Below, in pieces: positions 22,926 to 57,731 of a stretch of DNA of 64,000 nt. Under the pieces are notes generated by a model. That model made no database searches and was not told the origin of the DNA. It was given only the letters and a program-made list of their open reading frames with translations. This DNA is from Kiritimatiellia bacterium (GTDB lineage: Bacteria > Verrucomicrobiota > Kiritimatiellia > RFP12 > JAAYLN01), in contig JAGCUY010000070.1 of the NCBI GenBank assembly GCA_017962605.1, positions 2,095 through 66,094 of the forward strand, read 5' to 3'. Made by a program: the position numbers and the translations under genes. The first letter of the stretch is position 1. Every line of letters begins with the position of its first letter.

Positions 22926-22961
22926 GTCAATCTCCGGTTATTGTCATTCAATTTGCAATTG

Positions 22962-25228: not shown

Positions 25229-25262
25229 GAGCAAACCTCTCCTCCAAAAACAAACGATAAGA

Positions 25263-26417
25263 TTATACCAAAAAATGGCTTTCTTTGATAAGGTCTGGAC
25301 ATCCGCAGACATCCGCAACTATTTCCCTGTTCCTCCACTTGATTCGTTGCAGGGGGAATGTGACAGGGGCGTTGCGCTTGGGGACAAGTGTTTCCACGGC
25401 TGTGAAGCCGGCGGCGGCAAGGCTTTTGCGGAGGTTCGACATGGTCTTGGTCAGGTCTTCCGCGAACTTCTCGTTGGAGAAGAGCGAACCCTCCTGGAAA
25501 GTGGCTATCCAGTCGCATTTGCCGGATGCATGGTTTTCCGTGCCATGCAGGGCGAGTAGTCGCCTATGGAGGTCACGGATAGGGCACCCGCCAGCAATCA
25601 AAAGGAGCGTCGCAAAGCATGGGCGGCTCATGGGGACTGTCGCCCCGTCGAGTGTCACCCAGCCATTCCATGCGTCGATTTCAATCTCAGGATAAACAAC
25701 GGCTGGCGGTGCGACTTCCTGAACCCGCGAAACAAGTGTTCCGTAATTTGGCGGCAGCGACTTGAACTTCTCCTGATACCACCCACGCATGCGCACATAC
25801 GGCACCTCGAACAGCTCGCTTTTCAGCGAAGCACCCGCATGACTCTTTCCCGTAAGCAGGGACTTGTAGCGCGTTCCCTTTTTGGGGAAGAAGAAGGGCG
25901 GCTCACTTCCACCCTCCAATGCTGGCGGCAGCAACACATGGTAAACCTTGTCGCAATCGCGGCCGAGAAGCGTCATGCAGGAAAACATGAGGGCGCTCAT
26001 TGTCTTTCGTCCGCCTGCAATCGATACGTGGAGTTCCGTCCCGCAATCCTCTGTGAATTGGCGTAGTTGCGAGAGCATGAAGTTTGCTGCGCGGAGATTG
26101 TCGTCGCCCGTCCTGAGATCGTCGATTTCGTTGCCATGCGCATCAGGGATGGCGCGAATGGATGCGCTCCCGAAAACGAGACGCCCTTCGACATCAAGCC
26201 CGCTCCGCTTCATGCAAGCCAACATGTCGTTCCAAACGCCCCCTTCGAGAAGCGCTTCGCAAAGACATCTCTTCCCGCTCTTCGTCGTGATGGCGACGAC
26301 CTCGTCAGGCACAACCGGAACATCACAATGGGCCAGCGCCCATGCGGTCTCCGTGAGAATCGACGGCGTCGTGCCAACAACGGCCACCAAAACTGCCTTC
26401 TTGTCCTTTTCCATCAC
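25263..26417 (-). CDS. CARF-domain protein (CRISPR-associated NE0113-like Rossmann sensor) with uncharacterised C-terminal domain
   Basis: Strand-1 motif VLVAVVGTTPSILTETAWAL and strand-4 motif LHVSIAGGRKTMSA match the two CARF signatures. 384 aa. GC-rich, host-like composition. Directly upstream of the AT-rich island on the same strand. Confidence 0.45.
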   Translation of the reverse strand: MMEKDKKAVLVAVVGTTPSILTETAWALAHCDVPVVPDEVVAITTKSGKRCLCEALLEGGVWNDMLACMKRSGLDVEGRLVFGSASIRAIPDAHGNEIDDLRTGDDNLRAANFMLSQLRQFTEDCGTELHVSIAGGRKTMSALMFSCMTLLGRDCDKVYHVLLPPALEGGSEPPFFFPKKGTRYKSLLTGKSHAGASLKSELFEVPYVRMRGWYQEKFKSLPPNYGTLVSRVQEVAPPAVVYPEIEIDAWNGWVTLDGATVPMSRPCFATLLLIAGGCPIRDLHRRLLALHGTENHASGKCDWIATFQEGSLFSNEKFAEDLTKTMSNLRKSLAAAGFTAVETLVPKRNAPVTFPLQRIKWRNREIVADVCGCPDLIKESHFLV

Positions 26418-27676
26418 TATTCCCCCTCTAGCAGAAAGTCGTAGGCGTTGACTTGGTGGACGCCATTGTTCGAGGCTGGCAGATCCATGTCGAGCGTAAT
26501 CAGCGTCTTGGGGTAGTGGTCGCGTATCGCCAAAAGAGGCGCGTATTCGCGCATCCGCGTCGTTTCGTCCCGCACTGTCTCCGCAACCTGGTAATAGCGG
26601 ATGTCGTCGCCATCCCGCGTGACAAAATCGACTTCTCGGCCGTCATGTTGCCCAACCATGACATTTCCCGAACGGCGCAGCAACTCAAGATAGACGATAT
26701 TCTCCAGCATGCGCCCCGAATCGCCGGAACGGTTGCCCAGAAGACGGTAACGCAATCCCATGTCAACGGCATAGTATTTGCACCCGCTTGTGAGTACATC
26801 CCGTCCGCGAATGTCATAGCGCGGGGCCTTTAGGAAAAGGAAGGCGTCGCACAAGGCATCAACATAGCCCTCGACCGTGTTGCCGTTCGTCCTGGCACCG
26901 GCGGAGGAAAGCGAGGTGGCGATGTTCCTGAGGCTCGTCAGATTGCCGATATTGTCCAAGAGGAAACGAGCTATGCGGTCGACCAGCCCCGCGTCCGTCA
27001 TCTTCCGCCGTCGCAGAACATCCTTCACCAGAACGGTATTGTAGATGCCGTCAAGATACTCGCCTACAAGCCTCGCATCGCCCCGCAGTGACGGAACATA
27101 CGGAAAAGAACCGAAGCGAAGGTAATCTAGGTAATGACGGGTGTAGTCCCCTGTCGCGCCGATGGCGTTGCAGTATTCGCGGAATGACAGCGGCTGCATC
27201 TTGATTTCAACATAGCGGCCGGAGAGAAATGTCGCGAGGTCGCCTGAAAGCATGTTGGCGTTCGAACCCGTGACATAGACGTCGATGTTCTTGCGCGAAT
27301 GGAGTCCGTCAACCAGCTTCTCGAACTCCGGCAAACGCTGAACCTCGTCAAGGAAGACATATGTCTTTCCATGAGTGGCAATCTGCTGCTTGATGAGATT
27401 CCAAGCATCGCGCCATGACGAAAACTCCGGCGTATCGGGATCCTCGAAGTTGAGGGCGACAATCCGGCTGTCAGGTACGCCGGCGCGCTTCAAACTGTCA
27501 CGAAAGATTTCAAGGATCGTGGACTTTCCGCAACGGCGGACGCCTGTCACGACTTTGACAAGATCATGGTCTCGCCAATGTTCCAACTGGCGCACGTAAT
27601 ACGGCCTGCCGAAGATAGTCTTTTCGCTGTTGTCCATAAGCAACTTCCCGATATAAAAACACTTCAATTGAATCAC
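26417..27676 (-). CDS. AAA+ ATPase, AAA_14 + DUF4143 family
   Basis: Walker A GVRRCGKST, Walker B VFLDEVQ, and a C-terminal region typical of DUF4143 ATP-binding proteins. 1-nt overlap with the CARF gene. Confidence 0.65.
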   Translation of the reverse strand: MIQLKCFYIGKLLMDNSEKTIFGRPYYVRQLEHWRDHDLVKVVTGVRRCGKSTILEIFRDSLKRAGVPDSRIVALNFEDPDTPEFSSWRDAWNLIKQQIATHGKTYVFLDEVQRLPEFEKLVDGLHSRKNIDVYVTGSNANMLSGDLATFLSGRYVEIKMQPLSFREYCNAIGATGDYTRHYLDYLRFGSFPYVPSLRGDARLVGEYLDGIYNTVLVKDVLRRRKMTDAGLVDRIARFLLDNIGNLTSLRNIATSLSSAGARTNGNTVEGYVDALCDAFLFLKAPRYDIRGRDVLTSGCKYYAVDMGLRYRLLGNRSGDSGRMLENIVYLELLRRSGNVMVGQHDGREVDFVTRDGDDIRYYQVAETVRDETTRMREYAPLLAIRDHYPKTLITLDMDLPASNNGVHQVNAYDFLLEGE

Positions 27677-28559: not shown

Positions 28560-28720
28560 TTAGGAAGCAAATGGAAGTTCTTGAAGTTGAAAAGTTGAGA
28601 GGTTGAAAGGTTGAAAAGTTGAAAAGTTAGGCGCTGACGCACGACAAATAATCTCACACAGAGGCACAAAGACACAGAGGAGAAGTTGAGAGGTTGAGAG
28701 GTGGGGCGAAAGGGCCATGC
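28560..28720. repeat. tandem octamer repeats (GTTGARAR)n with an embedded REP-like fragment (AGGCGCTGACGCACG)
   Basis: gaagttgaaaagttgagaggttgaaaggttgaaaagttgaaaagttaggcgctgacgc...gagaagttgagaggttgagaggtgggg. Confidence 0.75.
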
Positions 28721-28723
28721 CAC

Positions 28724-31519
28724 CTAGTGCATTTCCCTTGAGAGGGAGACGACTTCCATGAGGGTGCGGTCGTCGAGGCCGGCAAGCCAGCTGGCGCCGT
28801 CGGTCACGATGGTGCCTGCAAGCTGGCGCTTGCCGGAGATGAGGTCGTCAATTTTGGACTCAAGTGTCCCGTCGCAGATGAAGGTGTGGACGAAGACTGT
28901 CTTGGTCTGGCCTATGCGGTGGGCACGGTCGGTCGCCTGGCTCTCTGTCGCGGGATTCCACCAGCGGTCGTAGTGGAAGACGTGGTTGGCGCGGGTGAGG
29001 TCGAAGCCAAGTCCGCCCGCGCGGATTGAGATTAGGAAAATCGGCGGCCCCGACGGCTCCTGGAACTTGCGGACCATCTCGGCGCGGGCGGTGGCCGGAA
29101 CTCCACCGTGGAGGAAGGGGACCTCGAAGCCGAACTTCTCCGAGAGGTGGGCGGCCAGGAGGTGTCCGAAGGTAGCATACTGCGTGAATACGAGCGCCGC
29201 CTCGCCAGATGAGACAACCTGGTCGAGCATTTCGTCGAGCGTGGCGAGCTTGCCGGACTGCTCCGGGTCGAGCGTGCCCGAGCCGTCGGTGGGATAGTCG
29301 CAAATCTGCTTGAGGCGCGTAATGAGGGCGAGAACGGCCCCGCGCCTGGATATGCCTTGGCGTCCGGCGAGGTCCTTTTCGGCTGCGGCTGTCTCGGCGG
29401 CGTAGAGCGACGCCTGCGCGACGGTGAGATGGCAGAAGACCTTCTCCTCGACCTTGTCGGGGAGTCCGGCGGCGATTTCCGGGTCGGCCTTGACGCGCCT
29501 CAAAACGAATGGCGCGACAATGCGGCGCAGCTGCGTGGCGGCCTCAGCGCTGGCGTCTGCCGGCGCGGCGGAGCCGAACTTGCGTTCGAACTCGGACTTG
29601 CCGGGGAGAAGCCCGCGGTTGACGAAGTCCATGATGGCCCAGATGTCGGTGATGCCGTTCTCGACGGGCGTGCCGGTGATGGCGAGCCGCCAGGAGGCGT
29701 CGAGCGAACGCGCCGCGCGCGACTTCATTGTCTCGGGGTTCTTGATGTTCTGCGCCTCGTCGAGTGCGACAATCGCCCAGCGGATCTGCCCTATGGACTC
29801 AATCTCCGCCGCGAGCATCTGGTAGCTGGTGATGCAGATGTCCTTCCTGTTGGCCTTCGCAATGAAGTCTGCGCCGTGGGGGCGCTCAAGGCCGTGGTAT
29901 ATCCACGACGAGAGCGATGGGGCAAAGCGCCGCGCCTCATGGAGCCACTTGAGCATGATCGACATCGGGCATACCACGAGGAAGGGGCCGGTCACGCCGT
30001 CGCGGCGCGCGTCGAGGAATGAGACAATCGCCTCGATTGTCTTGCCGAGGCCCATGTCGTCGGCCAGGCATGCGCCAAAGCCCGACCTGCGCAAATAGGA
30101 GAGCCAGTCCAGCCCCTGCCGCTGGTAGGGGCGCAGCGAGCCGGCGAAGTCATCCGGAACTGCGACCTGCTTCAGCCTGCCGCCTCCGCGCAGCGGTGCA
30201 GTGAGGCGACGCGCCTCCGCAGGCAGCGCCGCATCCGGGACCTCAACGGAAATCTCGCCGCCTACGCCCATGCCGAGACGCACAAGGTCGCGCAGGCTCG
30301 TCGTGCGGCTGGCAAGCGTGGCGAGGGTGGATGCGGCCTCCTTGACCAGTTCGGGATCGACATTCATCCACTTGCCGCCGATTTTGGCGACGGGGACTTC
30401 GTTCTCCGCGATCCACTTCAGCTCGCGGGCGGAGATGCCTGTGCCGCCAAGGACGACCTCCCACTTGACATTGACGATGGAGTCGAGGGAGAAGGCGCCC
30501 TCGCGGTGGATGCGTTCAGCCGACACGGCGCGGATGAAGGGGCGTCTCGCGGAGGCGGGCTTCCACCAGCGCGGCGCGAAGACGGGGAACCCGGCGGCGG
30601 CGAGGCGCGGCATCGCCGACTCCATGAAGGAGCGGAGGGCCGCGCCGTCGAGAGTCGCGGCGGCGAAGCGTCCGGCTGAGCCGCCGTCCTCATCCGAGAG
30701 GCCGTGGAAGAGGCGCGAAGCGCCGCCGAGGGCCAGGAGGATGCGGCGTGCTGCGGCGGGGCCGATTTCATCGAGCAGCTTGCGCGTTACGGGGCGCGCG
30801 GAGGAGTCGGTAATCGCCACTGGGACAAGCCGCCAGAGCGGGCTGACGGAATCGCTGCCGGTGGGGTCGGCGATTTTGAAGCCGAGCGCGGGGGATTCGC
30901 ACTGCGCGGGCATGGCCTGGCCGCGCCAGGTTTCGAGCGATGATGCGAGTTTGGCTAGGTCGGCGTCGCTGCCGACGGCGACCTCGCCATTAGGCGTGGC
31001 CAGAGACGCGAGGAAGAAGGAGTGCGGGTTGCTTGGTGAGAAGCGCTCGAGGAGCAGGCTCTTGAAGGGAAGGCAGAACTTCCGCATCTGGATATCGACG
31101 GCGTCGAGGAAGAATGCGTAGGGGGCGGATACGCAGGACAGAGCCTGCGAATCAGGACAGGAGGGTGAGGGAACGCAGGACGGAGCCGGAGAATCAGGAC
31201 GGGAGACGACGGACTCAGGGCGGAAGGCGCTGGCCGCAGCCTCGCAGAGGGTGGCGAGGCGGGCGCGGTCGGCGGCGCAGAGCAGGGGCGTCCAGCGGCT
31301 GCGGCGGCCGCTCAGCGAGGGCAGAACGCATTTCGCCTCAATGGCCTCGGTGGCGAAGCGCCAGAGCGCGGCGAGGGCCTTGAGGTCTGCGCCGAGTTCG
31401 GTGCCTTCCGGCGGCTTCGCGAAGAGCGCTGCCGGATTGGGGCAGGGGACGGGGCGTTGCGCCCCTTCCTTCCACACCCAGAGGCGTCCGCGAGTCCAAT
31501 TGCCGTGAAGGATGTCCAT
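28724..31519 (-). CDS. SNF2-family helicase (RapA/HepA-like) with long N-terminal region
   Basis: DEXD box (LADDMGLGKTIEAI, DEAQNIKN) and helicase-C motifs (GGLGFDLTRANHVFHYDRWWNPATESQATDRAHRIGQ). Confidence 0.8.
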   Translation of the reverse strand: MDILHGNWTRGRLWVWKEGAQRPVPCPNPAALFAKPPEGTELGADLKALAALWRFATEAIEAKCVLPSLSGRRSRWTPLLCAADRARLATLCEAAASAFRPESVVSRPDSPAPSCVPSPSCPDSQALSCVSAPYAFFLDAVDIQMRKFCLPFKSLLLERFSPSNPHSFFLASLATPNGEVAVGSDADLAKLASSLETWRGQAMPAQCESPALGFKIADPTGSDSVSPLWRLVPVAITDSSARPVTRKLLDEIGPAAARRILLALGGASRLFHGLSDEDGGSAGRFAAATLDGAALRSFMESAMPRLAAAGFPVFAPRWWKPASARRPFIRAVSAERIHREGAFSLDSIVNVKWEVVLGGTGISARELKWIAENEVPVAKIGGKWMNVDPELVKEAASTLATLASRTTSLRDLVRLGMGVGGEISVEVPDAALPAEARRLTAPLRGGGRLKQVAVPDDFAGSLRPYQRQGLDWLSYLRRSGFGACLADDMGLGKTIEAIVSFLDARRDGVTGPFLVVCPMSIMLKWLHEARRFAPSLSSWIYHGLERPHGADFIAKANRKDICITSYQMLAAEIESIGQIRWAIVALDEAQNIKNPETMKSRAARSLDASWRLAITGTPVENGITDIWAIMDFVNRGLLPGKSEFERKFGSAAPADASAEAATQLRRIVAPFVLRRVKADPEIAAGLPDKVEEKVFCHLTVAQASLYAAETAAAEKDLAGRQGISRRGAVLALITRLKQICDYPTDGSGTLDPEQSGKLATLDEMLDQVVSSGEAALVFTQYATFGHLLAAHLSEKFGFEVPFLHGGVPATARAEMVRKFQEPSGPPIFLISIRAGGLGFDLTRANHVFHYDRWWNPATESQATDRAHRIGQTKTVFVHTFICDGTLESKIDDLISGKRQLAGTIVTDGASWLAGLDDRTLMEVVSLSREMH
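31120..31225. repeat. in-frame tandem repeats (GGACGGAGCCGGAGAATCAGGAC-type) inside the SNF2 gene, encoding SRPDSPAPSCVPSPSCPDSQALSCV
   Basis: Same repeat family as 33075-33205, 33580-33675 and 35785-35875. Confidence 0.7.
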
Positions 31520-31520
31520 T

Positions 31521-32966
31521 TTACCGCCGTTTGACGGCGGTGCCGCCGCTCAGTTTTGCCACGAGGTCGTAGCCTTCGTGGCCGGTGATTTCGACTTCGG
31601 CAAAGTCGCCAGGCCGGAGGCTGGCGGGAGGATTTGCAATCAGCGTGGCGCCATCGACGTCGGGCGCCTGGAATTCGGCGCGGGCGACGGCGCGGTCGCC
31701 GTCAACTTGCTCGACGAGGACGCGGGCGCGGATGCCGGCCATCGAGGCGAGACGGCGCTCCACGATCTCCTGCTGAGCCTCCATGAGACGGCTGCGGCGG
31801 AGCTCGGCCATTTCCGGCGCGACGGTGCCGTCCATCTTCGCGGCCGGAGTGCCCTCTTCGGGCGAGAAGGTGAATACGCCAAGCTGGTCGAACTCCGAGG
31901 CGCGGACGAAGTCGAGGAGGTGCTCGAAGTGGGCCTCGGTCTCGCCGGGGAAGCCGACGATGAAGGTGGTGCGCAGGGCGATACCTGGGACGGCGGCGCG
32001 GAGGCGGCCGACGATGGAGCCGATGTGGCGCACTGTGTCGGCGCGGCGCATGGCGCGTAGCATCTCAGGGTGGCTGTGCTGGAGCGGGAGGTCGATGTAG
32101 CGGCAGACATGGCGGGCGGAGGCCATGACGGAGAGAAGTTCGTCGCTGATGAGCGACGGATAGCCGTAGAGGAGGCGGAGCCAGAAGTCGCCGCGAATCC
32201 GGTCGAGGCTGGTGAGGAGCGAGGCGAGCGATGTGCCGTCGCGCAGGTCGCGGCCGTAGGCGGTGACATCCTGCGCGACGACATCGAGTTCGCGGATGCC
32301 GGAGCGGACTAGCGCCCTGGCCTCGGCAAGTATGTCGCGAGGCCGGCGCGAGCGCAGATGGCCGCGGATGGCGGGGATGGCGCAGTAGGCGCATGCGTGG
32401 TTGCAGCCATCGGCGACCTTGAGGAAGGCGTGGACTCCGCCGGTGATGGTGAAGTCGGGAACTGGCGGCTCAAAGAGGGTGTCGCGGGCGGTGGAGACGA
32501 GGACGGGGGCGGCCGCTGGCGCGGCCGCCGTGGAAGGCGCGGTTTGAAGAACCGCGCCGACAAGACGGGAGGCGACAGACTTAGGACGGTCGGGAGCTGA
32601 GAGGGAGCGGAGAAGTGCGGGGAGGTCGAAGAGGTGGTCTATGCCGAGCCAGCCATCGACTTCCGGGTATTTGGCGGCGAGGGAGGCTCCGTAGCGCTGC
32701 GGAAGGCAACCTGTAACAACGACGAACCGCGCCTTGCCCGAACGCTTGAGGTCGCATGCGCGGAGAATTTCGTCGTTGGCCTCCTGTCGTGCCGCCTCAA
32801 TGAAGGCGCATGTGTTCACGAGAATGCAGTCGGCGCGATCAGGATTTGACGACAGCGCGATGCCCTCTGTGAGGAGGGCGCCTGCCATTACCTGAAGATC
32901 GACGGCGTTCTTGGCGCAGCCCAGGCTGACAAGCCCCACCGAAAACTGGCGCCTTTTATTCGGCAT
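31521..32966 (-). CDS. rimO: ribosomal protein S12 methylthiotransferase (MiaB-family radical SAM MTTase)
   Basis: MTTase N-domain, radical-SAM CxxxCxxC (DGCNHACAYCAIP), C-terminal TRAM. Carries a Pro/Ala-rich insertion that contains the hairpin repeat element. Confidence 0.7.
   Translation of the reverse strand: MPNKRRQFSVGLVSLGCAKNAVDLQVMAGALLTEGIALSSNPDRADCILVNTCAFIEAARQEANDEILRACDLKRSGKARFVVVTGCLPQRYGASLAAKYPEVDGWLGIDHLFDLPALLRSLSAPDRPKSVASRLVGAVLQTAPSTAAAPAAAPVLVSTARDTLFEPPVPDFTITGGVHAFLKVADGCNHACAYCAIPAIRGHLRSRRPRDILAEARALVRSGIRELDVVAQDVTAYGRDLRDGTSLASLLTSLDRIRGDFWLRLLYGYPSLISDELLSVMASARHVCRYIDLPLQHSHPEMLRAMRRADTVRHIGSIVGRLRAAVPGIALRTTFIVGFPGETEAHFEHLLDFVRASEFDQLGVFTFSPEEGTPAAKMDGTVAPEMAELRRSRLMEAQQEIVERRLASMAGIRARVLVEQVDGDRAVARAEFQAPDVDGATLIANPPASLRPGDFAEVEITGHEGYDLVAKLSGGTAVKRR
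32527..32590. repeat. GC-rich hairpin repeat element (GGCGCGGTT-TGAAG-AACCGCGCC core), copy 1, in frame within rimO
   Basis: gccgtggaaggcgcggtttgaagaaccgcgccgacaagacgggaggcgacag. Encodes ASRLVGAVLQTAPSTA on the minus strand. Confidence 0.8.
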
Positions 32967-33972
32967 AGCTGTCGGGGGGTGGAAGAAGGTTGTCGGTGAG
33001 GGCGCTGCCGACTATGGTGATTCGGGCCTGTGAACTGGGGGCATCCAGGCTTTCGCTAGCAGGTTCGGCAGATTCGGCTACGGTGGACGGAGCCGGTGGG
33101 GCAGGAGGTGTGGGCGTGGCTACGCTGGACGGAGCCGGCGAATCAGGTTGGGGGGCCACGGCTATGTTGGATGGAGCCGGTGAATCTGGATTGGAGGGTT
33201 CGGGGCCGCCGATGGAGAGCGTGCAGATCCAGGCTGCGGCGGCCAAAACCAGCACTGCCGCGCATGCACGCTGGAAAAGGGGAGTGCGCGCAATGCGGCC
33301 AGCGGCTGTGATGGCTTGCGAGAGGATGGCCTTGGCCTGTGAACTGAGGGCCTTCGTGCGATTGCGGGAAGGCGCAGTTACGCGGGACGGGGCTGGCGAC
33401 TCAGGCCGCGAGGGGGCGACCTCTGGCGCGACCGCCGTGGCAGGCGCGGTTTGAAGAACCGCGCCGACAGGACGGGAACCGACAGAATCAGGGCGAGTGG
33501 GGGCGGGGGGTGGAGTTGGGCGCGGTGTTTCCTCGAAGAGATCGCCTTGGGCCTGTGTGCTGGCGCTTGTGGGCGCGGATACGCTGGACGGAGCTGGGGA
33601 ATCAGGATGGGAGGGAGATACGCGGGACGGAGCCCGCGAATCAGGACGGGAAGGGGCTGGCTCAGGGCGGGCGGGGGCGCGGTGGCTGGAGAACTTCTGC
33701 GGCGGGGCCTTGGTCTTGGGCAGGGCGGTGTGGGCCTCTACCCATGCCTGGTATTCCTGTGCGAATGTTTCGCGGAGGGGGGCGGCGTCCACGCCGTAGT
33801 ATTTGGCGAGGATTTTTATGAAGCCGCTGCCGTAAATGGCCGCAGAGATTCTGGAATAGTCGCCGGCCTCAAATTCCCTGAGGACATGCGGGCCGATGTG
33901 GGTTTCCTCGGAAAGCTTTTCAATCGTGAGGCCTTTTGCCTCGCGCAGTTTTACAAGTTCAGTGCCTAACAT
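32956..33972 (-). CDS. RodZ-like protein: N-terminal XRE-type HTH, Pro-rich linker, one TM, periplasmic C-terminus
   Basis: MLGTELVKLREAKGLTIEKLSEETHIGPHVLREFEAGDY resembles the RodZ/HTH_25 N-terminus. TM LFQRACAAVLVLAAAAWICTL. Linkers are built from the repeat elements. Confidence 0.5.
   Translation of the reverse strand: MLGTELVKLREAKGLTIEKLSEETHIGPHVLREFEAGDYSRISAAIYGSGFIKILAKYYGVDAAPLRETFAQEYQAWVEAHTALPKTKAPPQKFSSHRAPARPEPAPSRPDSRAPSRVSPSHPDSPAPSSVSAPTSASTQAQGDLFEETPRPTPPPAPTRPDSVGSRPVGAVLQTAPATAVAPEVAPSRPESPAPSRVTAPSRNRTKALSSQAKAILSQAITAAGRIARTPLFQRACAAVLVLAAAAWICTLSIGGPEPSNPDSPAPSNIAVAPQPDSPAPSSVATPTPPAPPAPSTVAESAEPASESLDAPSSQARITIVGSALTDNLLPPPDSYAE
33075..33205. repeat. in-frame tandem repeats (GGACGGAGCCGGYGAATCAGG) inside the rodZ-like gene
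   Basis: ctacggtggacggagccggtggggcagg...gctggacggagccggcgaatcaggttgggg...ggatggagccggtgaatctggattggaggg. Confidence 0.7.
33434..33477. repeat. GC-rich hairpin repeat element, copy 2, in frame within the rodZ-like gene
   Basis: gccgtggcaggcgcggtttgaagaaccgcgccgacaggacggga. Encodes SRPVGAVLQTAPATA. Confidence 0.8.
33580..33675. repeat. in-frame tandem repeats (GGACGGAGCYSGGGAATCAGGA) inside the rodZ-like gene
   Basis: gatacgctggacggagctggggaatcaggatgggagggagatacgcgggacggagcccgcgaatcaggacgggaagggg. Confidence 0.7.
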
Positions 33973-33985
33973 GGGATGGTGAGGG

Positions 33986-34120
33986 GAGGTTTAGAAGTTT
34001 AGAAGTTTGGCGCAAGCGCCTTGGATGTTTAGAAGTTTGGCGCTGACGCGCCTGGGAGGTTTGGCGCTGACGCGCCTTGGAGGTTTAGATGTTTAGAAGT
34101 TGGGAGGATGGGAAGTTGGG
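33986..34120. repeat. intergenic composite repeat: (GTTTAGAA)n octamers plus REP-like palindromes GGCGCTGACGCGCC x2, copy B of the 11878-11946 element
   Basis: aggtttagaagtttagaagtttggcgcaagcgccttggatgtttagaagtttggcgctgacgcgcctgggaggtttggcgctgacgcgccttggaggtttagatgtttagaagttggg. Confidence 0.7.
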
Positions 34121-34122
34121 GG

Positions 34123-36780
34123 TTATTCGTCGGCGGGGACATCGGTGGGGATTTCGCCGTCGAGGTCAATGAGGATTTCGCGCGGGAGGGCGCCGCGTGA
34201 CGGCCCGACTATGCCGCGCTCTTCGAGCTGGTCGAAGATGCGGGCGGCGCGGCCGTAGCCGATGCCGAGGGCGCGTTGGAGCGACGAAGTCGATGCGCGG
34301 CGCGTCCTGCGGATGACGGCGATGGCGTCCTGGAAGAGCGGGTCGGTGCCGTCGCCGGAGTCCGCCGCGACATCGGGGCTTGCCTCCATCGCCGTGGAGG
34401 CGGGTGCGCTGGAGTGGCCGCCAGAACGGTCCTTCTCCTTGTCCTTGCCCTCGCCGGTGGTGGCCTCCAGCTGGCGCTGCGCCTCCTCGCTGTATTTCGG
34501 GCGGGCCTGGGAGCGGATGTATGTGGTGACCGCTTCGGCGTCGCCATCGGTGATGAAGGCGCCCTGCGCACGGATGGTCTTTCCGGTGCGCGGGTTGAGG
34601 AAAAGCATGTCGCCCTTGCCGATGAGGGATTCCGCGCCCATGCGGTCGATGATGGTCTTGCTGTCGTTCTTCTGCGCCACCTGGAAGGCGATACGGCCTG
34701 CGATGTTGGCCTTGATGGTGCCGGTGACGATGTTCACCGTGGGGCGCTGGGTGGCGAGGATGAGGTGGATGCCGACGGCGCGTGACTTCTGCGCGAGGCG
34801 GGTGATGCCGTCCTCGATCTCCTTCTTCACCTGAAGCATCAGGTCGGCCATTTCGTCGATGACGATGAGGATGTAGGGGAGCTTGTCGGGGAGTTCGCTG
34901 GCGGGGTCGTCGTCTTGCGTGTCCTCGAACATGTCCTGCTGGACGGGAACGTGCTTGCGGTTGTTGAAGGAAGCGATGTTCTTTACCCCGGCGGTGCTCA
35001 GCATCTGGTAGCGGCGCTCCATCTCGTGGATGGCCCAGATGAGGCCAAGCGCAACCTTCTTGGGGTCGGTGATGACGGGGACGACCAGGTGCGGGATGTC
35101 CCTGTATCCGGCGAACTCGACGACCTTGGGGTCAACGAGGATGAGCTTCAGCTCTTCGGGCGTGCGGCTCATCAGGAGGCCGGTGAGCATGGCGTTCATG
35201 CAAACGGACTTGCCGGAACCGGTGGCGCCGGCGACGAGGAGGTGCGGCATTTCCGTCATGTCAACGACGAGGTCGTGGCCGCTGGCGTCCTTGCCGAGCA
35301 GGAGCGGGAGGTTGTACTTACGGACGGCGGCGCGCCAGGTGTCGCCTTCGAGGACCTCGCGGACGGTGACGGAGCGGGCGACGCGGTTGGGGACCTCAAT
35401 GCCGCAGACGCCCTTGCCGGGAATTGGAGCCTCGATGCGAAGGGACTTGGCCTTGATGCGCATCTCAAGGGTCTTGTCCATCGCGGCGACCTGCTCGGGG
35501 CGAATGCGCTGCGCGGGGAGGAACTCGTAGGTGGTGATGACCGGCCCGACCTCGACATGGGTGATGTCGCCGGGAACGCGGAACTCGGCGAGTGTGGCGG
35601 CGATGTTCGCCGCAGTCTCCTCGGTGTCGCCGGCGTCGGCCTCGCCCTCGGGGATAGGTGAGAGCAGGTCGATGGAGGGGGAGACATAGGGCTTTTCTTC
35701 GGCGGAGAGGGCGGCCGCTGGTGTGCCCGCCGTGGCAGGCGCGGTTTGAAGAACCGCGCCGACAGGACGGGAGACGACGGAATCAGGACGGGAGGGGGAT
35801 ACGCGGGACGGAGCCCGCGAATCAGGACAGGAGGGTATGCTGGACGGAGCCGGAGAATCGGGGCGGGAGGGGGCGGGTTCGGGTTGTGGCTCTGGTTCGG
35901 ATTCGCGCCGGGCCTCCTCGATGGCGGCGCGGCGGCGCTCCTCGGCGGCTTCTCGTTCAAGGCGCAGGCGCTCCTTTTCCGCCTCGTATGCGCGCTCGCG
36001 TTCGGCGCGTTGCTCCTCTTTGGCGCGCAGACGCTCCTCCTTCTCAAAGCGGCGCTGCTCCTTCTCGGCCTCGCGCTCCTGGCGCAGGCGATCCTTCTCG
36101 GCCTGCTTCGCGGCCTTGGCCTCCTCGCGGAGACGACGCAGCTCCTCCTGTTCCGCACGTCGGCCCTCATCCATGCGGGCCATTCGCCAAGCGCGGAATT
36201 TTTCCCAAAGAGATGCGAAAAGGTTGCGCCAGTTCCGCCAGCCAACACCGAAGACAATCGCGATTATGGCAAGCACAAGGACAATCTGCGTGCTCCCCAC
36301 TCGCCCGAGGACTGGCCGCAGGCATTCGGTCATCATGAACCAGCCAATTGCGCCGCCAGCGCTCTTGAGGTTCAGGGCCTCGCATTTCGCCTGGAAGCCG
36401 CCGGCCTCAAGCAGCGCCGAAATGCAAGACTGAAGAAGCAGCGCCCAAAGTAACTTGCGCCAGGGGTGCGGCATCTTGTCCGTGACCATCAAGTAGCCGA
36501 AAAGCAGCATCCAAACGGGCAGGAGCCAAATCCCGAGGCCGAAAAGTGTGTAGCCAAAGAAAGTGCCAATAGCGCCCGCCATGCCTACAAGGTTGCGGAC
36601 ATCGCCGGTACCGCCGGCGTGGAGCCACGGGACATCGTGCCAGTCATAGCTCGCTATGCTCAGCAGTGGAAAGCTTACAAGCAAAATGAGAACGAACCCC
36701 ACGATACGTGTCGTGACGGTTGGTTCGTATTCTTCTTCTTCCAAACGTTTGTTGGATCGACCTTTCGAATTCAGCATCAT
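34123..36780 (-). CDS. ftsK: DNA translocase FtsK
   Basis: N-terminal 4-TM domain, Pro/Glu/Ala-rich linker, motor domain with Walker A (GATGSGKS) and a C-terminal gamma winged-helix (TSSLQRALGIGYGRAARIFDQLEERGIV). Confidence 0.85.
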   Translation of the reverse strand: MMLNSKGRSNKRLEEEEYEPTVTTRIVGFVLILLVSFPLLSIASYDWHDVPWLHAGGTGDVRNLVGMAGAIGTFFGYTLFGLGIWLLPVWMLLFGYLMVTDKMPHPWRKLLWALLLQSCISALLEAGGFQAKCEALNLKSAGGAIGWFMMTECLRPVLGRVGSTQIVLVLAIIAIVFGVGWRNWRNLFASLWEKFRAWRMARMDEGRRAEQEELRRLREEAKAAKQAEKDRLRQEREAEKEQRRFEKEERLRAKEEQRAERERAYEAEKERLRLEREAAEERRRAAIEEARRESEPEPQPEPAPSRPDSPAPSSIPSCPDSRAPSRVSPSRPDSVVSRPVGAVLQTAPATAGTPAAALSAEEKPYVSPSIDLLSPIPEGEADAGDTEETAANIAATLAEFRVPGDITHVEVGPVITTYEFLPAQRIRPEQVAAMDKTLEMRIKAKSLRIEAPIPGKGVCGIEVPNRVARSVTVREVLEGDTWRAAVRKYNLPLLLGKDASGHDLVVDMTEMPHLLVAGATGSGKSVCMNAMLTGLLMSRTPEELKLILVDPKVVEFAGYRDIPHLVVPVITDPKKVALGLIWAIHEMERRYQMLSTAGVKNIASFNNRKHVPVQQDMFEDTQDDDPASELPDKLPYILIVIDEMADLMLQVKKEIEDGITRLAQKSRAVGIHLILATQRPTVNIVTGTIKANIAGRIAFQVAQKNDSKTIIDRMGAESLIGKGDMLFLNPRTGKTIRAQGAFITDGDAEAVTTYIRSQARPKYSEEAQRQLEATTGEGKDKEKDRSGGHSSAPASTAMEASPDVAADSGDGTDPLFQDAIAVIRRTRRASTSSLQRALGIGYGRAARIFDQLEERGIVGPSRGALPREILIDLDGEIPTDVPADE
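35729..35875. repeat. GC-rich hairpin repeat element copy 3 plus adjacent tandem GGACGGAGCC-GAATCAGG repeats, in frame within the ftsK linker
   Basis: gccgtggcaggcgcggtttgaagaaccgcgccgacaggacgggagacgacggaatcaggacgggagggggatacgcgggacggagcccgcgaatcaggacaggagggtatgctggacggagccggagaatcgggg. Confidence 0.8.
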
Positions 36781-36887
36781 TGCGTCCGCCTAAAACAAAA
36801 CACCATATTTTATTATAATTCGACAAGAATATCCACTTTGCCACAGCCGCGTTGCCGATTCCGCAAAAATGATAGAATCTTTTAATC

Positions 36888-38522
36888 ATGAAACTCGATT
36901 GCACGCTAGTTCCTTCCACACTTCGCATTTTCCCGAACGACGCCCTTCCGGCGCGTTCACTGTCCTCGATTGACGCCGCCCTAAACGAGCGGTTCTCTTT
37001 CCAATTGGGGCTTCGCGCCGACGAGGCGGTTCGCGTCCGCGTGTCGCTAGTCGGCCCGGAAGGGTGGTCGTTGAGAGTCCGCCGCGTGGGCTTCGTCCCC
37101 ATGCCGCACCACAACACCCTCATCATAAGAGACCCGCTGGACACCGACGGCCTCGGCCGCATCCCAGGCTTCGTCCCAGACCCGCTCTTCGACGAAAGCG
37201 AATTCTCCCTCCCGCAATCTGAAACGAACGCCTTTTGGTTCACGGTGACGCCATCTGCAGGCGCCGATCCTGGGCGCCACCGCCTCCAAGTGACGGTTGA
37301 GACATTCGACGAAAAAGGCAACCCGGCGGGGCGTCCGCGCCGCCTTGCGCTCATCGTGCGGCTGCACAACGTGCGCCTCGCCAAGCGCAGCGGGTTCCAT
37401 GTCACCCACTGGCTCTACACCGACTGCCTAATGGACCGTTACGGAACTGACGGCTTCGACGAAAAGTTCTGGCGCATCCTTCCCGCCTATTTGCGCAACG
37501 TCGTCGAGCATGGGCAGGACACGATCTACGTGCCGATGTTCACGCCGCCGCTCGACGGAGTGAAGCGCCCCTCGCAGCTCCTGCGCGTCAAGCGCCGCAA
37601 AGGCGGCGGCTATGAATTCGACTGGACGGATGTGCGGCGCTACGTCCGGCTGGCGAAAAAGTGCGGGCTCGGCACATTCGAGTGGTGCCACCTCTTCGCG
37701 CAATGGGGGTGCCGCCATGCCCTCCGCATCTACGAAGGGCAGGGGAAAGACGAAAAACTCCTCTGGCCGGAAGAGACACCCGCGACCTCGCCAATCTACC
37801 GCGACTTCCTAGCGCAGCTGCTTCCCGAACTGCGCGCCTTCCTGCGCGACGAACGCATACTTGGCGCGTCGCTCTTCCACCTCTCGGACGAACCGTCTGG
37901 GGAGGAGGCGCGCGTCAACTACGCGGCGGCAAAGAGCATGCTGGTCGGCATCGCGCCATGGATGCGCTTCATCGACGCAGTTTCGGAAATCGAATTCGGC
38001 AAGGGCGGCCTCATAGACACGCCGGTTCCGAGCATCCATACGGCACTCGACTTCCATGCGGCAGGCATATCGAGCTGGTGCTACTACTGCTGCGGGCCTC
38101 GCGGCCCCTTCCTCCAGCATCTGCTCGACACGCCTCTGGCAAAGGTCGCCATGCACGGGTTCCTCTTCTGGCGCTGGCCCTTCCTCGGCTTCCTGCACTG
38201 GGGGCTCAACTATTGGAACCAGCGCGGCACGCGCACGCCCATCGACCCATTTGCCGTGTGCGACGCGGGCGCCTGGCCGATTTGGGCCTACGGCGACACC
38301 TTCCTCATCTACCCCGGCCCAGATGGCCCGATTGACTCGATGCGCTGGGAGGTCTTTGCCGAAGCAATGCAGGACTACGCCCTTTTGCAGACGCTGGGCG
38401 TCGCCCGCGACAATGCCATTCTCGCGCCGCTGCGCTCCTTCTCCGATTTCCCGAAAGACGCGGAGTGGCGCATTGCCGCCCGCCGCCGCCTATTCGCCCT
38501 TGCGGAGCGCTCCGCTCTTTGA
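36888..38522 (+). CDS. hypothetical protein, possibly DUF4091/glycoside-hydrolase-like
   Basis: 544 aa, no signal peptide seen. HLSDEPSGEE and W/Y/C-rich C-terminal segment are only vaguely reminiscent of DUF4091 (GH123-like) proteins. Confidence 0.3.
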   Translation: MKLDCTLVPSTLRIFPNDALPARSLSSIDAALNERFSFQLGLRADEAVRVRVSLVGPEGWSLRVRRVGFVPMPHHNTLIIRDPLDTDGLGRIPGFVPDPLFDESEFSLPQSETNAFWFTVTPSAGADPGRHRLQVTVETFDEKGNPAGRPRRLALIVRLHNVRLAKRSGFHVTHWLYTDCLMDRYGTDGFDEKFWRILPAYLRNVVEHGQDTIYVPMFTPPLDGVKRPSQLLRVKRRKGGGYEFDWTDVRRYVRLAKKCGLGTFEWCHLFAQWGCRHALRIYEGQGKDEKLLWPEETPATSPIYRDFLAQLLPELRAFLRDERILGASLFHLSDEPSGEEARVNYAAAKSMLVGIAPWMRFIDAVSEIEFGKGGLIDTPVPSIHTALDFHAAGISSWCYYCCGPRGPFLQHLLDTPLAKVAMHGFLFWRWPFLGFLHWGLNYWNQRGTRTPIDPFAVCDAGAWPIWAYGDTFLIYPGPDGPIDSMRWEVFAEAMQDYALLQTLGVARDNAILAPLRSFSDFPKDAEWRIAARRRLFALAERSAL

Positions 38523-41226: not shown

Positions 41227-42537
41227 ATGAGCGATAAAAGAACGGAACAGGACGCGGGCGCGCCACGGCTGGAAGTAGTGGCCGGGCCTGACAAAGGGCT
41301 TGTTTTCGCCCTGCCGGAAGGCGTGGCGACAGTAGGTCGCGCCGGAAACAGCACCCTTGCCCTGAAGGACCCGCTGCTCTCGCGGCAGCACTGCCAGTTT
41401 TCGCGCAACGGCTCAAAGGTCGAGGTCGCCGACCTCGACAGCGCCAATGGCACAATCGTGAACGGAGTAGAGGTGCCGTCCGCCACGCTGAAGGACGGCG
41501 ACGAGATCCTCCTCGGCGACACCCGCCTCATTTTCAGGGCAGGGGGGAGCGCCGCAGAGGCGCCACTCGTTGACCTCGGCTTCGACTCGCCGGAGGACGT
41601 GGCGTCCGATTCAGCCACGCGCCCGAACTGGCGTCCGCTGATTTGGGCCATCGCGGCAGTGGCGGTCGTGGCGATAGCCGCGTCATTCATACTTCGCGGC
41701 GGCTCGGCGCCAACGGAGCCGAAGATCGTGGCACCAGTGGAGGCACCTGTCCTGCCGCTTGTGGTGCGCTACGAGAAGGTCGAGGCAAACGACTCCAACA
41801 TCTTCCGCTACGGGATGGAGCTTTCCCCATCGCGGATGCTCTCCATTGAAATCGACGACCTAAGCGAAGACCGCCATGTGCGCAAGAGCGCCGAAGTGCC
41901 CGTCGAGAATGTGGAGCGGCTGGCCCGGCGCCTGGAGAAGGCCGGGATGTTCGCTCTTGAAAGCCCATCGCAGGGAATCTCGCCGGATGGCTCGCTCATG
42001 CGCAGGTCGGTGTCGGTCGCGTCGGGCAAGCGCTTTGGCGAGGCGGTCGTTGAGAACCGCGTCGTTCCGCCCGCCATTTCCGATGTATGCGACCTGCTTG
42101 AGACATTCGGGCGAAACGAGCTTGGAATCTGGGCCGTCCAGTATCCCACCGAGAAGTTAATTGAGCTGGCGCGCGAGTCATTCACCAGGGCGCGGAACCT
42201 CTTTGAGCAGCGCGACATCTCCCACGGGAACCTATATGACTCGGTCAAGGCTTGCCGCGAGTCGATCTTCTACTTGGAGACAGTAGAGCCAAAGCCTGAC
42301 TTCAACGTCGAGATGCTAGATCTGCTCGAAGACGCGGAGGCCGAACTCTCCCGCCGCTACGAGGAGCAGCGTTTCCGCGCCGACCGCGCAATCAACCTGA
42401 AGGAGTGGCAGACTGCCGCAGAGGAGCTGCGCATCCTGCGGGAGCAGATTCCAGACGAGGACGATCCGCGCAACGCGGACGCCACTCGCAAGCTGCTTGA
42501 CGTTGAGAACCGCATAAGGAAGGGGAAGGGGAAATGA
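41227..42537 (+). CDS. FHA-domain membrane protein
   Basis: FHA signature (TVGRAGNSTLALKDPLLSRQHCQF ... GSKVEVADLDSANGTIVNGVEV), followed by a single TM (LIWAIAAVAVVAIAASFIL) and a C-terminal helical domain. Confidence 0.65.
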   Translation: MSDKRTEQDAGAPRLEVVAGPDKGLVFALPEGVATVGRAGNSTLALKDPLLSRQHCQFSRNGSKVEVADLDSANGTIVNGVEVPSATLKDGDEILLGDTRLIFRAGGSAAEAPLVDLGFDSPEDVASDSATRPNWRPLIWAIAAVAVVAIAASFILRGGSAPTEPKIVAPVEAPVLPLVVRYEKVEANDSNIFRYGMELSPSRMLSIEIDDLSEDRHVRKSAEVPVENVERLARRLEKAGMFALESPSQGISPDGSLMRRSVSVASGKRFGEAVVENRVVPPAISDVCDLLETFGRNELGIWAVQYPTEKLIELARESFTRARNLFEQRDISHGNLYDSVKACRESIFYLETVEPKPDFNVEMLDLLEDAEAELSRRYEEQRFRADRAINLKEWQTAAEELRILREQIPDEDDPRNADATRKLLDVENRIRKGKGK

Positions 42538-42650
42538 AGTTGGGAAGTTGGGAAGTTGGGAAGTTGAAAGGTTGGGAAGTTGAAAAGTTGAAAGGTAGAA
42601 AGGTTGAAAAGTTGGGAAGGGGAAGTTTAGATGTTTGGAAGGTAGGAAGG
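42538..42650. repeat. tandem octamer repeats (GTTGGGAA / GTTGAAAG)n
   Basis: aagttgggaagttgggaagttgaaaggttgggaagttgaaaagttgaaaggtagaaaggttgaaaagttgggaagg. Confidence 0.8.
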
Positions 42651-42671: not shown

Positions 42672-43973
42672 GAGGCGCCGGTGGTGGCTGCCGTTCCGGC
42701 GCAGCCTGCCTGTAGGGTCGAGATAGAGGCTGATCCGGCTGGCGCGGAAATCTTGCTGGACCACAAGCCGCTTGCGGACTGGCCTGGAGCGATGTCCGTA
42801 GAGCCTGGCAAGTGGGAAGTGCGGCTTGATCCGGGCGACTACCTCGTCGGCTTCAAGGCCGAGGACTACGATCCGGCTACCGCGCCGCTGCGTGTCAGGC
42901 AGGGCGATGCCCGCGCCCTCGTGGCCCGCACGCTGGCCAAGACCACCGGTCTTGCGCTGCTGACAAGTGATCCGCCAGAGGCGGAGATCACCATTGACGG
43001 CGTTTCATTTGGCAGAACGCCGCGCATGATTTCCGATTTGGCCCTTGGCACATGGCAGGCGACATTCTCTCTGCCCAGCTTCAAGGCGCAGACTCTCCAG
43101 TTCACCCTCAAGGACCGCACACCAGTGGCGGTCGCCGCTAAGCTGTCTTCCGACTCCGCCACGCTAGAGATCGTAGCCAACGTGGCCGATGCCGAGATTA
43201 GCGTGAACGGCGCACCACGCGGACGAGCCCCTTGCACAGTCGAGCGCATCCCCGCTGGCGAAGTCGTAATTGAGGCGAAAGCCCATGGCTACCGCGACTT
43301 CACACTGAAGGTTCGCGTCGGCGAGGCGGAGCGCCTGCCAGTCGATGTGCGCATGGAGCCGCTTCCGGCCTCCCTCTCCGTGTATTCCATCCCCGTCGGC
43401 GCACGCGTCTATATCGACAACAACTACCGAGGGGAGTCGTCGCTTACGCTGGATGACCTCGCGCCCGGTGTCCACCGCATCCGCGTCGAGAAGGACGGGT
43501 TCGACCCGATGGCGCGCACAGTCTCGCTAGGGCGCGGCGACAGCGCGACAGAGGAGTTCAGGCTGCGGGCCAACACGGGCAAGCTCTCCATTACCTCCGT
43601 TCCGGCCGGCGTCACCGTGTTCGTCGATGGCGTGAAGTCCGGCGAAACGCCTCCAGGCGAAGTCAAAGACCTTTCGGGCGTCTTGGAAATTGACAGCGTC
43701 GCCGAGGGGCCCCATTCGCTGAAGTTCTCCAAGCCCGGATATTATGAGAAGAGTGCAGAATGCCTTGTCCGGCGCGGCGAGACGACGCTCCAGCGCATCG
43801 AGTTGGCGCGCCAGTTCATTCCCGACTACGAGGTGGTCACTGAGACAGGTGCGCACAAGGGCATATTCCTCTCGATCACACCCACGGCTGTGCGCATGGA
43901 GACAAGCCCCGGCGTGGTGAGCCAATACCCGATTTTGAACATCATCAGCCACGGGCCATTGAAGGAGAAATGA
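42672..43973 (+). CDS. PEGA-domain repeat protein (about 5 PEGA domains)
   Basis: Repeated PEGA-type motifs: PAGAEILLD, PEAEITIDGVSFGRTP, ADAEISVNGAPRGRAP, GARVYIDNNYRGES, PAGVTVFVDGVKSGETP. The 5' end of the track ORF (from 42534) translates the octamer repeat, so the true start is probably downstream, near 42672. Confidence 0.55.
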   Translation, partial: EAPVVAAVPAQPACRVEIEADPAGAEILLDHKPLADWPGAMSVEPGKWEVRLDPGDYLVGFKAEDYDPATAPLRVRQGDARALVARTLAKTTGLALLTSDPPEAEITIDGVSFGRTPRMISDLALGTWQATFSLPSFKAQTLQFTLKDRTPVAVAAKLSSDSATLEIVANVADAEISVNGAPRGRAPCTVERIPAGEVVIEAKAHGYRDFTLKVRVGEAERLPVDVRMEPLPASLSVYSIPVGARVYIDNNYRGESSLTLDDLAPGVHRIRVEKDGFDPMARTVSLGRGDSATEEFRLRANTGKLSITSVPAGVTVFVDGVKSGETPPGEVKDLSGVLEIDSVAEGPHSLKFSKPGYYEKSAECLVRRGETTLQRIELARQFIPDYEVVTETGAHKGIFLSITPTAVRMETSPGVVSQYPILNIISHGPLKEK

Positions 43974-50816: not shown

Positions 50817-50960
50817 GTGTAAATATGGAAGTGTGAAAATGTGAAAATGTGGAAATGTGGAAATGTGGAAGTGTGGAAATGTGGAAGTGTGGAAATGTAA
50901 AGTGCTTATATCATTGGCTGTTGGCTGTTGGTTGTTTTCACATTTTCACACTTCCACATT
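50817..50960. repeat. (AARTGTGG)n octamer tandem repeat forming a long inverted repeat (arms about 50826-50851 and 50933-50958)
   Basis: gtgtaaatatggaagtgtgaaaatgtgaaaatgtggaaatgtggaaatgtggaagtgtgg...ggttgttttcacattttcacacttccacattc. The right arm is the reverse complement of the left arm. Lies between amt (3' end) and pyrG (5' end). Confidence 0.8.
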
Positions 50961-57705: not shown

Positions 57706-57731
57706 ATTATTACCAACAGGCTTGCAAGACC

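Follow-up and report, generated by a model that had tools for sequence, protein, structure and literature searches.

We analyzed a 64,000-nt stretch of a metagenomic scaffold from a Kiritimatiellae bacterium (contig JAGCUY010000070.1; called the window here), which contains a short hairpin-forming repeat located in frame within protein-coding genes. The repeat lies in a cluster of adjacent minus-strand genes (28724..36780) that encodes an SNF2 helicase (28724-31519), RimO (31521-32966; Pfam UPF0004, Radical_SAM, TRAM_2), a RodZ-like protein (32956-33972; Pfam HTH_25) and FtsK (34123-36780; Pfam 4TM, alpha, motor and gamma domains). The rimO, RodZ-like and ftsK genes each carry one copy of a 23-nt hairpin, which reads GGCGCGGTT-TGAAG-AACCGCGCC (in full, GGCGCGGTTTGAAGAACCGCGCC) on the plus strand and is located at 32536-32558, 33443-33465 and 35738-35760, respectively. 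A scan of the whole window allowing up to two mismatches detected no further match to this hairpin. Shuffling showed that 0.03 matches are expected by chance, and 0 of 100 shuffles reached three.

The initial annotation of this DNA had described the hairpin as part of a 44-nt unit with a perfect 9-bp stem and a 5-nt loop, present in three unrelated genes in one orientation and in frame, and encoding an identical 15-amino-acid peptide in each. The perfect stem and the loop were found in all three copies, and the open reading frames (ORFs) together with the Pfam domains confirmed the identity, orientation and frame of the hosts. The 44-mer itself is exact at 33434-33477 and 35729-35772, but differs at two positions in rimO (32527-32570). 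Likewise, the peptide SRPVGAVLQTAPATA is the same in the RodZ-like protein and FtsK, whereas RimO has SRLVGAVLQTAPSTA, in which two residues differ. The similarity among the three copies extends past the 44 nt, covering ~61-83 nt at 89-95% identity.

The 35-nt core and its distribution

The repeated unit is a 35-nt core consisting of the 12-nt head TCCCGTCCTGTC followed by the hairpin; as a pattern it can be written CGTCCTGTC plus a 9-bp stem and a 5-nt loop. In coding sense the hairpin is read as GGC GCG GTT CTT CAA ACC GCG CC, encoding GAVLQTA. The core copy in rimO (32536..32570, minus strand) has the head TCCCGTCTTGTC, with one mismatch to the canonical head, followed by GGCGCGGTT-CTTCA-AACCGCGCC, and reaches 60.9 bits with a covariance model. 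Its product is SRLVGAVLQTA(P), in which GAVLQTAP begins at amino acid 137. The copy is located within ~34 amino acids that are additional in comparison to Thermotoga maritima RimO (4jc0), between the UPF0004 and radical-SAM domains. The copy in the RodZ-like gene (RodZ-mid; 33443..33477, minus strand; 63.1 bits) lies in the cytoplasmic linker leading from HTH_25 to the membrane segment and encodes SRPVGAVLQTA(P), with GAVLQTAP starting at amino acid 170. In ftsK (35738..35772, minus strand) the core was found as an exact as well as a covariance-model match in the linker that joins the 4TM domain to the alpha domain; the product is SRPVGAVLQTA(P), and residue 341 is the first of GAVLQTAP.

Each of these copies is part of a long form of ~85 nt on the minus strand, which is composed of a left flank, the core and a right flank. 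In rimO (32507..32588) the left flank is CGTCCTAAGTCTGTCGCC, and the right flank contains a second perfect hairpin, GGCGGCCGC-GCCA-GCGGCCGCC, at 32508-32529. The long forms in the RodZ-like gene (33414..33495) and in ftsK (35709..35790) have a right flank that is homologous to the rimO host sequence; the second hairpin is imperfect in the former (33415-33436) and degenerate in the latter (35710-35731).

The search beyond the window yielded further copies. An exact scan of metagenome contigs with the 23-mer gave 21 contigs, six of which belong to close relatives of the window organism. On these six contigs the core is located inside ORFs, always in the same frame; the hosts are rimO, the SNF2 gene and the RodZ-like gene, where it occupies a second site, and additionally the genes for MutL, CysRS and a GT4 glycosyltransferase. 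The MutL copy is located in the interdomain linker after the DNA_mis_repair domain, the CysRS copy just ahead of the DALR domain, and the GT4 copy at the junction of the two Rossmann halves, where the interdomain loop is length-variable in other orthologues, too. Placement in interdomain linkers of unrelated proteins, as described in the initial annotation, holds for all intragenic copies. The eight intragenic sites (rimO, RodZ-like twice, ftsK, SNF2, MutL, CysRS and GT4) read (S)RPVGAVLQTAP, with the variant given above in the window rimO.

A mismatch-tolerant search detected two diverged copies on the contig carrying the MutL copy (L121). One of them (L121:99) is located between convergent genes and contains one T.T mismatch. 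The other (L121:7531) lies at the 5' end or in the 5' untranslated region of an uncharacterised ORF and has a TAG in the usual frame; its stem is perfect, owing to two compensatory pair changes (G:C to A:U and U:A to C:G). Since L121:99 is intergenic and the frame of L121:7531 holds a stop codon, the element is not limited to in-frame sites within genes, and the in-frame insertion proposed initially applies to the eight intragenic sites, which share one frame. Altogether, ten sites were found in ~110 kb of clade sequence (eight inside ORFs, one intergenic, one at a gene 5' end), and contigs of metagenome JAEEGL carry six exact-hairpin copies. All ten sites follow the orientation of the local gene and are singlets without inverted doublets. 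The GC skew was uninformative for orienting the copies with respect to replication because gene strand confounds it. The MutL copy and the intergenic copy L121:99 share a GC-rich 3' extension, AGCGCGGGGYGCGGGGCGCGAAGCCCCGCC (L121:9694-9730 and L121:134-165), with a hairpin of its own (GCGGGGC-GCGAA-GCCCCGC), which suggests a second long-form subfamily of the element.

Other searches gave no additional copies. Covariance model R1, built from the known copies, detected nothing further in 176 kb of close-relative or 32 kb of distant-relative sequence, and viral contigs contained no match to the element. When genome contigs were scanned for the hairpin with an unspecified loop, none of the 117 loci among the matches listed had a TGAAG/CTTCA loop; these loci are chance terminator-like hairpins from many phyla. 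A HMMER search of 1.84 billion representative proteins with the element peptide returned only the window RodZ-like protein and one further protein (P0008), and a word-indexed protein search with the 54-amino-acid consensus peptide returned nothing. P0008 was rejected as a relative: its DNA (L142) contains a different, unrelated repeat, and the peptide resemblance is due to chance. No transposase gene was found in the neighbourhoods examined (~110 kb). A CRISPR-repeat origin, brought up by a nearby Cas_NE0113-domain gene, was discarded, with no CRISPR-like array of the core present in the window or at the related loci.

The other 15 contigs with an exact 23-mer were likewise rejected as relatives. 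They represent one orthologous intergenic terminator of an unrelated organism, which is flanked by aaaagaatgc / gcattctttt, has no head motif and has a large SRP RNA and an FMN riboswitch among its neighbours; the match was judged coincidental, the palindrome carrying only ~14 nt of information. In that organism (L119-L138, e.g. L119:1231 and L126:2755) a conserved gene is followed by the identical 23-nt hairpin, which is a bidirectional terminator. When the 5-nt loop is read with respect to the flanks, about half of the contigs have CTTCA and the rest TGAAG, which is an inversion (flip-flop) polymorphism of a perfect palindrome.

We compared the core and its flanks at five paralogous sites (ftsK, RodZ-mid, rimO, SNF2 and a second RodZ-like site, RodZ-C; the last two from related strains). 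Not one of the 350 core positions compared differed, and this holds for every third codon position. At the same sites the flanks diverge by 27% (left 18 nt) and 13% (right 33 nt), with 51 non-synonymous and 14 synonymous codon differences. Selection at the level of the peptide cannot account for an invariant core between flanks whose changes are mostly non-synonymous, and the conserved object is the nucleic acid, as the initial annotation had proposed in describing a DNA-level repeat. Five of the six reading frames are open across the core; therefore, the use of a single frame by four or five independent events is non-random (roughly p = 0.002-0.04, varying with the way events and orientation are counted). 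The frame used gives the small, mostly uncharged peptide SRPVGAVLQTAP, whereas the remaining usable frames encode arginine-rich peptides.

As RNA the hairpin has a stability of -16.1 kcal/mol (z = -4.1), and an Rfam search of 30500-37000 with E-values up to 1 gave no relevant match. None of the window copies has a U-tract 3' of the hairpin: the coding sense continues with CUGCCACGG or UUCCACGG, the antisense with GACAGGACGGGA. Because this tract is missing, the core is not an intrinsic (rho-independent) terminator. Terminal inverted repeats are not present either; the end TCCCGTCCTG... does not recur in inverted form at the other end (...CCGCGCC), and the sole inverted repeat is the central hairpin.

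Strain variation, junctions and the rimO flank

A second family of in-frame repeats (A units, period 36-42 nt) is common to the SNF2, RodZ-like and ftsK genes. An A unit consists of the head TCCCGTCCTGATTC followed by a small palindrome and encodes roughly SRPDSxAPSxV; the head of the hairpin element (B) is nearly the same. In the window, A and B copies are confined to the four adjacent, co-oriented genes between 31.1 and 35.9 kb, and all A units are located on the minus strand. The SNF2 gene contains two A units of 36-42 nt (31125..31204; peptides SRPDSPAPSCV and SCPDSQALSCV). The RodZ-like gene has A units in the C-terminal (post-membrane) linker (33076..33195), one unit directly downstream of the core copy in coding sense (33374..33411) and two in the cytoplasmic linker (33574..33651). 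The latter are 93% identical over 57 nt to units in ftsK. Two A units are located in the ftsK linker (35797..35868), upstream of the core copy in coding sense. In the small palindrome 73% of cells pair, and one pair occurs as A:U, U:A and G:C, but at this position 13 of 18 unit types do not pair, so that covariation is only suggestive.

The ~8 kb cluster was compared between the window strain and three related strains (L140, L141 and L124), which are 95-97% identical. Occupancy differs at three of the five cluster sites. The rimO site is filled in all four strains, as is the RodZ-mid site, where the L124 copy is decayed. The ftsK site is filled in the window only and empty in L140, L141 and L124; the RodZ-C site is filled in L124 and empty in the other three; and the SNF2 site is filled in L141 and L124 and empty in the window and L140. 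The decayed L124 RodZ-mid copy carries three uncompensated substitutions, all of them non-synonymous (G to D, L to P, A to T), two of which break the stem, while the copies of this strain at new sites are pristine. Outside the cluster, the GT4 site is filled in L127 and empty in L143 (96.7% nucleotide identity) and in 14 further orthologues. Assemblies made independently, from several samples and in several studies (ERZ28653423, ERZ28653713, ERZ28653751, JAEEGG/JAEEGH/JAEEGL), show the same architecture. An assembly artefact, which the initial annotation had considered, is thereby ruled out.

Comparison of filled and empty alleles at ftsK, SNF2, RodZ-C, GT4 and rimO revealed no target-site duplication; the alleles are related by replacement or insertion instead. 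At ftsK, 27 nt (one A unit) in L140, L141 and L124 correspond to 75 nt in the window after the shared ...TCCCGTCCTGAT. At RodZ-C, ~81 nt of A units are exchanged in L124 for ~84 nt containing a long-form core copy, after CCAGATTC. In the SNF2 gene of L141 and L124 a short unit plus B is found in place of two A units, with the breakpoint at TCCCGTCCTG, and filled and empty alleles both finish in CCGCCCCC. The breakpoints in the cluster coincide with the shared motif TCCCGTCCTG. At GT4, the 12 nt GGCGACGCCCCG are exchanged for 54 nt made up of 15 extra nt, the 35-nt core and TCCC, which is a net gain of 42 nt or 14 codons.

The element is restricted to a narrow Kiritimatiellae clade. Relatives with 62-75% protein identity that keep the ftsK-RodZ-rimO-SNF2 synteny contain neither the core nor PDS-type units in their FtsK, RodZ and SNF2 linkers, and no element was found in RodZ-like orthologues with 42-65% identity, which have P/A-rich linkers. 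Orthologues of GT4 lacking the core were found as well. The 75%-identical rimO orthologue of L145 lacks a 51-nt segment that corresponds to the left flank and the core, and it keeps ACGGCGGCCGC..., which is the right flank of the long form. By this comparison the right flank, which accompanies the copies in RodZ, ftsK and SNF2, is ancestral rimO host sequence. Such an origin strongly suggests that the RodZ, ftsK and SNF2 copies of the cluster were templated from the rimO copy, which is the only one besides RodZ-mid found in all four strains.

Regions other than the element vary between strains, too. The spacer between ftsK and RodZ (33973-34122 and its equivalents in L140, L141 and L124) is hypervariable between the strains that are 95-97% identical elsewhere, both in the number of octamer repeats and in the number of GGCGCGTCAGCGCC hairpins (0 to 3). 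A strain-variable island is located downstream of the SNF2 gene (window, ~22900-27640; L140:15413-21020; L141:15553-21020). It contains AAA_14/DUF4143, Cas_NE0113-domain, AAA_15/AAA_21 and DUF7017/S1CSD-TOTE-2 genes in the window strain and RhuM, ORC/CDC6-like or AAA_11/AAA_12-DUF559 genes in the related strains instead, and resembles a hotspot of defence genes. In the GT4 gene, a 63-nt in-frame tandem repeat encoding MSADxPxPGFAPAAPAAGRAA is located at the 5' end (L127:4569-4760 compared with L143:10001-10130), with three copies in L127, two in L143, one in a 78%-identical orthologue (P0010) and none in more distant orthologues.

Spread of the element and alternative explanations

Taken together, we hold with moderate confidence that the core is a young, lineage-specific repeat, low in copy number as counted on contigs, that was spread by templated copying or gene conversion and is tolerated in linkers. 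Both the mode of copying and a neutral or selfish character of the repeat are inferred. The core would be copied to new places by non-allelic gene conversion or by template switching during replication, starting from short homologies and from the hairpin itself, and not by classical cut-and-paste transposition. Inside the SNF2-rimO-RodZ-ftsK cluster the older rimO copy would be the donor; it would have moved together with ~30 nt of rimO downstream sequence into the P/S-rich linker DNA of the neighbouring genes, with crossovers at the shared TCCCGTCCTG and displacement of the resident A-type units. The survivors of selection would be insertions of a multiple of three in disordered interdomain linkers, in the frame giving SRPVGAVLQTAP. 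Copies would last only where harm is small, with the peptide itself not being selected, and old copies would decay while new ones are pristine.

Several points weigh against spread by templated copying. No copying event was seen directly, and allelic recombination between strains could shuffle existing alleles, which makes the number of de novo events uncertain. The core may be invariant because of a selected function as DNA or RNA, and not because of recency or homogenisation; the L121:7531 copy keeps its perfect stem through compensatory changes, and every copy is oriented like the local gene. In GT4, MutL and CysRS, the dispersed copies consist of the core only, and since they lack the cluster flanks, flank homology did not guide them. 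The 15 extra nt at the GT4 junction are without explanation, and the low copy number is a count on contigs.

RAYT and HUH-type enzymes recognise a conserved asymmetric head beside a perfect hairpin (PMC3116915). The main alternative, which we regard as unlikely, is that a strand-specific single-stranded DNA transposase (RAYT or IS200/IS605-type HUH) uses the core as a REP-like substrate. It would recognise the hairpin together with the 12-nt head, and its insertions would lack terminal inverted repeats and target duplications; the rearrangements in the cluster would then be secondary recombination. The core has the anatomy that these enzymes require, terminal inverted repeats and target-site duplications are absent, and the single orientation of all ten sites fits a strand-biased mechanism. 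The core-only copies at dispersed sites without flank homology, the intergenic copy between convergent genes and the diverged copy in which two compensatory changes keep the stem paired also speak for a transposase. However, the junctions are imprecise (12 nt lost and 15 unrelated nt gained at GT4, replacements at the cluster sites), no transposase gene is present in the neighbourhoods examined, inverted doublets are absent, and the copy number looks low, with six exact copies on the contigs of one metagenome and ten sites in ~110 kb. It is rather doubtful, too, that a strand-specific enzyme or nucleic-acid-binding system dedicated to the core exists in this clade, REP-like but with the coding DNA of linkers as its main habitat; the hairpin might then also be exploited at domain boundaries, for example in co-translational pausing or mRNA processing. 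Maintenance of the hairpin for a nucleic-acid function, either as an mRNA structure at domain boundaries (pausing, RNase processing, stability) or as a palindromic site for a dimeric protein, seems quite improbable to us. Perfect conservation of 35 nt amid diverging flanks, the stable hairpin, the two compensatory changes in L121:7531, the constant orientation with respect to the gene and the location between domains argue for a function, but presence and absence vary freely between near-identical strains, even in the essential ftsK. Furthermore, two substitutions break the stem of the L124 RodZ-mid copy, L121:99 contains a T.T mismatch, the element is missing from all relatives examined outside the narrow clade, and the window copies show neither a U-tract nor a match to an Rfam family. 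Support from covariation is thin because there are only six distinct sequences, and 31 of 500 shuffles reach the observed value.

The remaining readings are effectively excluded. If the peptide SRPVGAVLQTAP were a functional short linear motif (e.g. a docking site), spread by recombination and kept by protein selection, the same frame in all eight intragenic copies despite five of six open frames would be accounted for, and FtsK and RodZ are both cell-envelope morphogenesis proteins. This reading is largely refuted, and we give it a very small chance: no synonymous position of the core varies, in contrast to flanks with mostly non-synonymous changes, the substitutions in L124 RodZ-mid are all non-synonymous, one copy is intergenic and another has a stop codon in frame, and the hosts RimO, CysRS, MutL, GT4 and SNF2 are functionally unrelated, with strain-variable presence. 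An ancient low-complexity linker inherited by descent, or an artefact of collapsed repeats, is extremely improbable. The linkers of RodZ, FtsK and MutL are commonly P/S/A-rich and repetitive in many bacteria, but the distant RodZ, rimO, ftsK, SNF2 and GT4 orthologues lack the core, the identity across unrelated genes is at the nucleotide level, and the copies recur in assemblies of different samples and studies.

Other repeats of the window and comparison with known systems

The window contains several other repeats. Tandem 8-nt repeats (AAGTTGRR / CAACTTYY, 6-14 copies) are present in many 5' or 3' untranslated spacers (4375-4442, 28584-28628, 33977-34120, 42536-42649, 50810-50898, with TGGAAATG at 50810, and 52253-52308), and in some of these arrays small hairpins, for example GGCGC-TGAC-GCGCC or GGCGC-GAAA-GCGCC, lie among the repeats. 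Between genes, 11709-12323 comprises ~600 bp of degenerate 24-nt tandem repeats (consensus ~ACGGTGCGGAAAAGTCGATAGACT) with higher-order periods of 48, 71 and 98 nt. Two arrays of the heptamer ATTTGAG with ~20 copies each (54242-54388 and 57552-57706) are located 3.3 kb apart and are AT-rich amid 59% GC. Finally, a tandem duplication of ~830 bp (44379-45776; 75-88% identity) lies within one plus-strand ORF (43844-46036) and probably represents the two AAA+ modules of a double-AAA ATPase.

In-frame palindromic repeats in housekeeping genes are best documented in Rickettsia, and the element described here is an independent, much smaller example from a poorly studied free-living lineage of the PVC (Planctomycetes-Verrucomicrobia-Chlamydiae) group. 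The sampled strains catch the process under way, with filled and empty alleles, decaying copies beside pristine ones and an identifiable rimO donor. The locus is a tractable natural system for asking how selfish or neutral DNA makes new peptide segments in essential proteins, and whether short hairpin repeats spread via recombination and replication errors or via a dedicated enzyme. In practical terms, such repeats can mislead homology inference, since they place the same peptide in unrelated proteins; they are also of use as strain markers.

The initial annotation had compared the repeat to REP and MITE sequences, an assignment that was not supported. REP/REPIN sequences are short palindromes (20-60 nt) with a conserved head, which are extragenic, present in hundreds of copies and mobilised by RAYTs (PMC3116915). 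The core resembles them as a short palindrome with an asymmetric head, without terminal inverted repeats or target-site duplications, with an orientation bias and with one intergenic copy. In contrast to REPs, eight of its ten sites are intragenic, the copy number appears to be tens at most from the contigs scanned, and no RAYT gene was found in the ~110 kb examined; unlike REPINs, the copies are singlets in one orientation and not inverted doublets. Several MITEs (ERIC, QMITE1 and the Anabaena MITEs) also have intragenic, ORF-fusing copies (PMC10969869), and the core is like them a small non-autonomous repeat able to fuse in frame with host ORFs; however, it is far smaller, has no terminal inverted repeats or target-site duplications, and its filled and empty alleles differ by replacement.

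Cyanobacterial small dispersed repeats (SDRs), reported by Elhai and colleagues in 2008, are reported to be hairpin-containing sequences of ~20-30 nt located in genes and spacers, with no known transposase. The core would be similar in being a very small hairpin repeat found in genes as well as in spacers, but it differs in sequence and phylum, and SDRs are numerous and often nested. Template switching mediated by quasi-palindromes and microhomology is an established mutation mechanism of replication. It would explain the replacement junctions at short motifs, the co-transfer of donor flanks and the apparently compensatory, stem-restoring changes; it is a mechanism and not a family of elements. 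Small variable segments inside genes have been described between strains of one species (PMC2884548). There, short stretches of near-identical genes are swapped for unrelated sequence in other strains, which resembles the situation at the core sites; the difference is that the incoming piece at the core sites is a defined repeat common to several genes.

The closest likeness is to the Rickettsia palindromic elements (RPE). According to Ogata et al. (2000, 2002; summarised in PMC10969869), these are hairpin repeats of ~100-150 nt located in frame inside many unrelated housekeeping genes, with a conserved peptide frame and fold-compatible sites, and they also occur in non-coding DNA. The core, too, is palindromic and hairpin-forming, occurs in frame at eight intragenic sites of unrelated genes with the same peptide, occupies fold-compatible linker sites (RimO, GT4, MutL, CysRS, FtsK and RodZ) and has one non-coding copy. 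It is set apart from RPE by size and taxon: the core has 35 nt and the long form ~85 nt, the host belongs to the Kiritimatiellota (PVC group), and the copy number appears low. In addition, half of the known core sites are located in four adjacent genes, and the junctions are replacements carrying donor flank, whereas RPE are simple insertions. No literature on such repeats in Kiritimatiellae was found. The best reading is that the element works like RPE, yet is no member of the RPE, REP/REPIN or MITE families. It belongs to the known kind of protein-coding palindromic repeats, within which its tiny size, its strain-level activity and the signs of a templated, flank-carrying spread between adjacent genes are of note.

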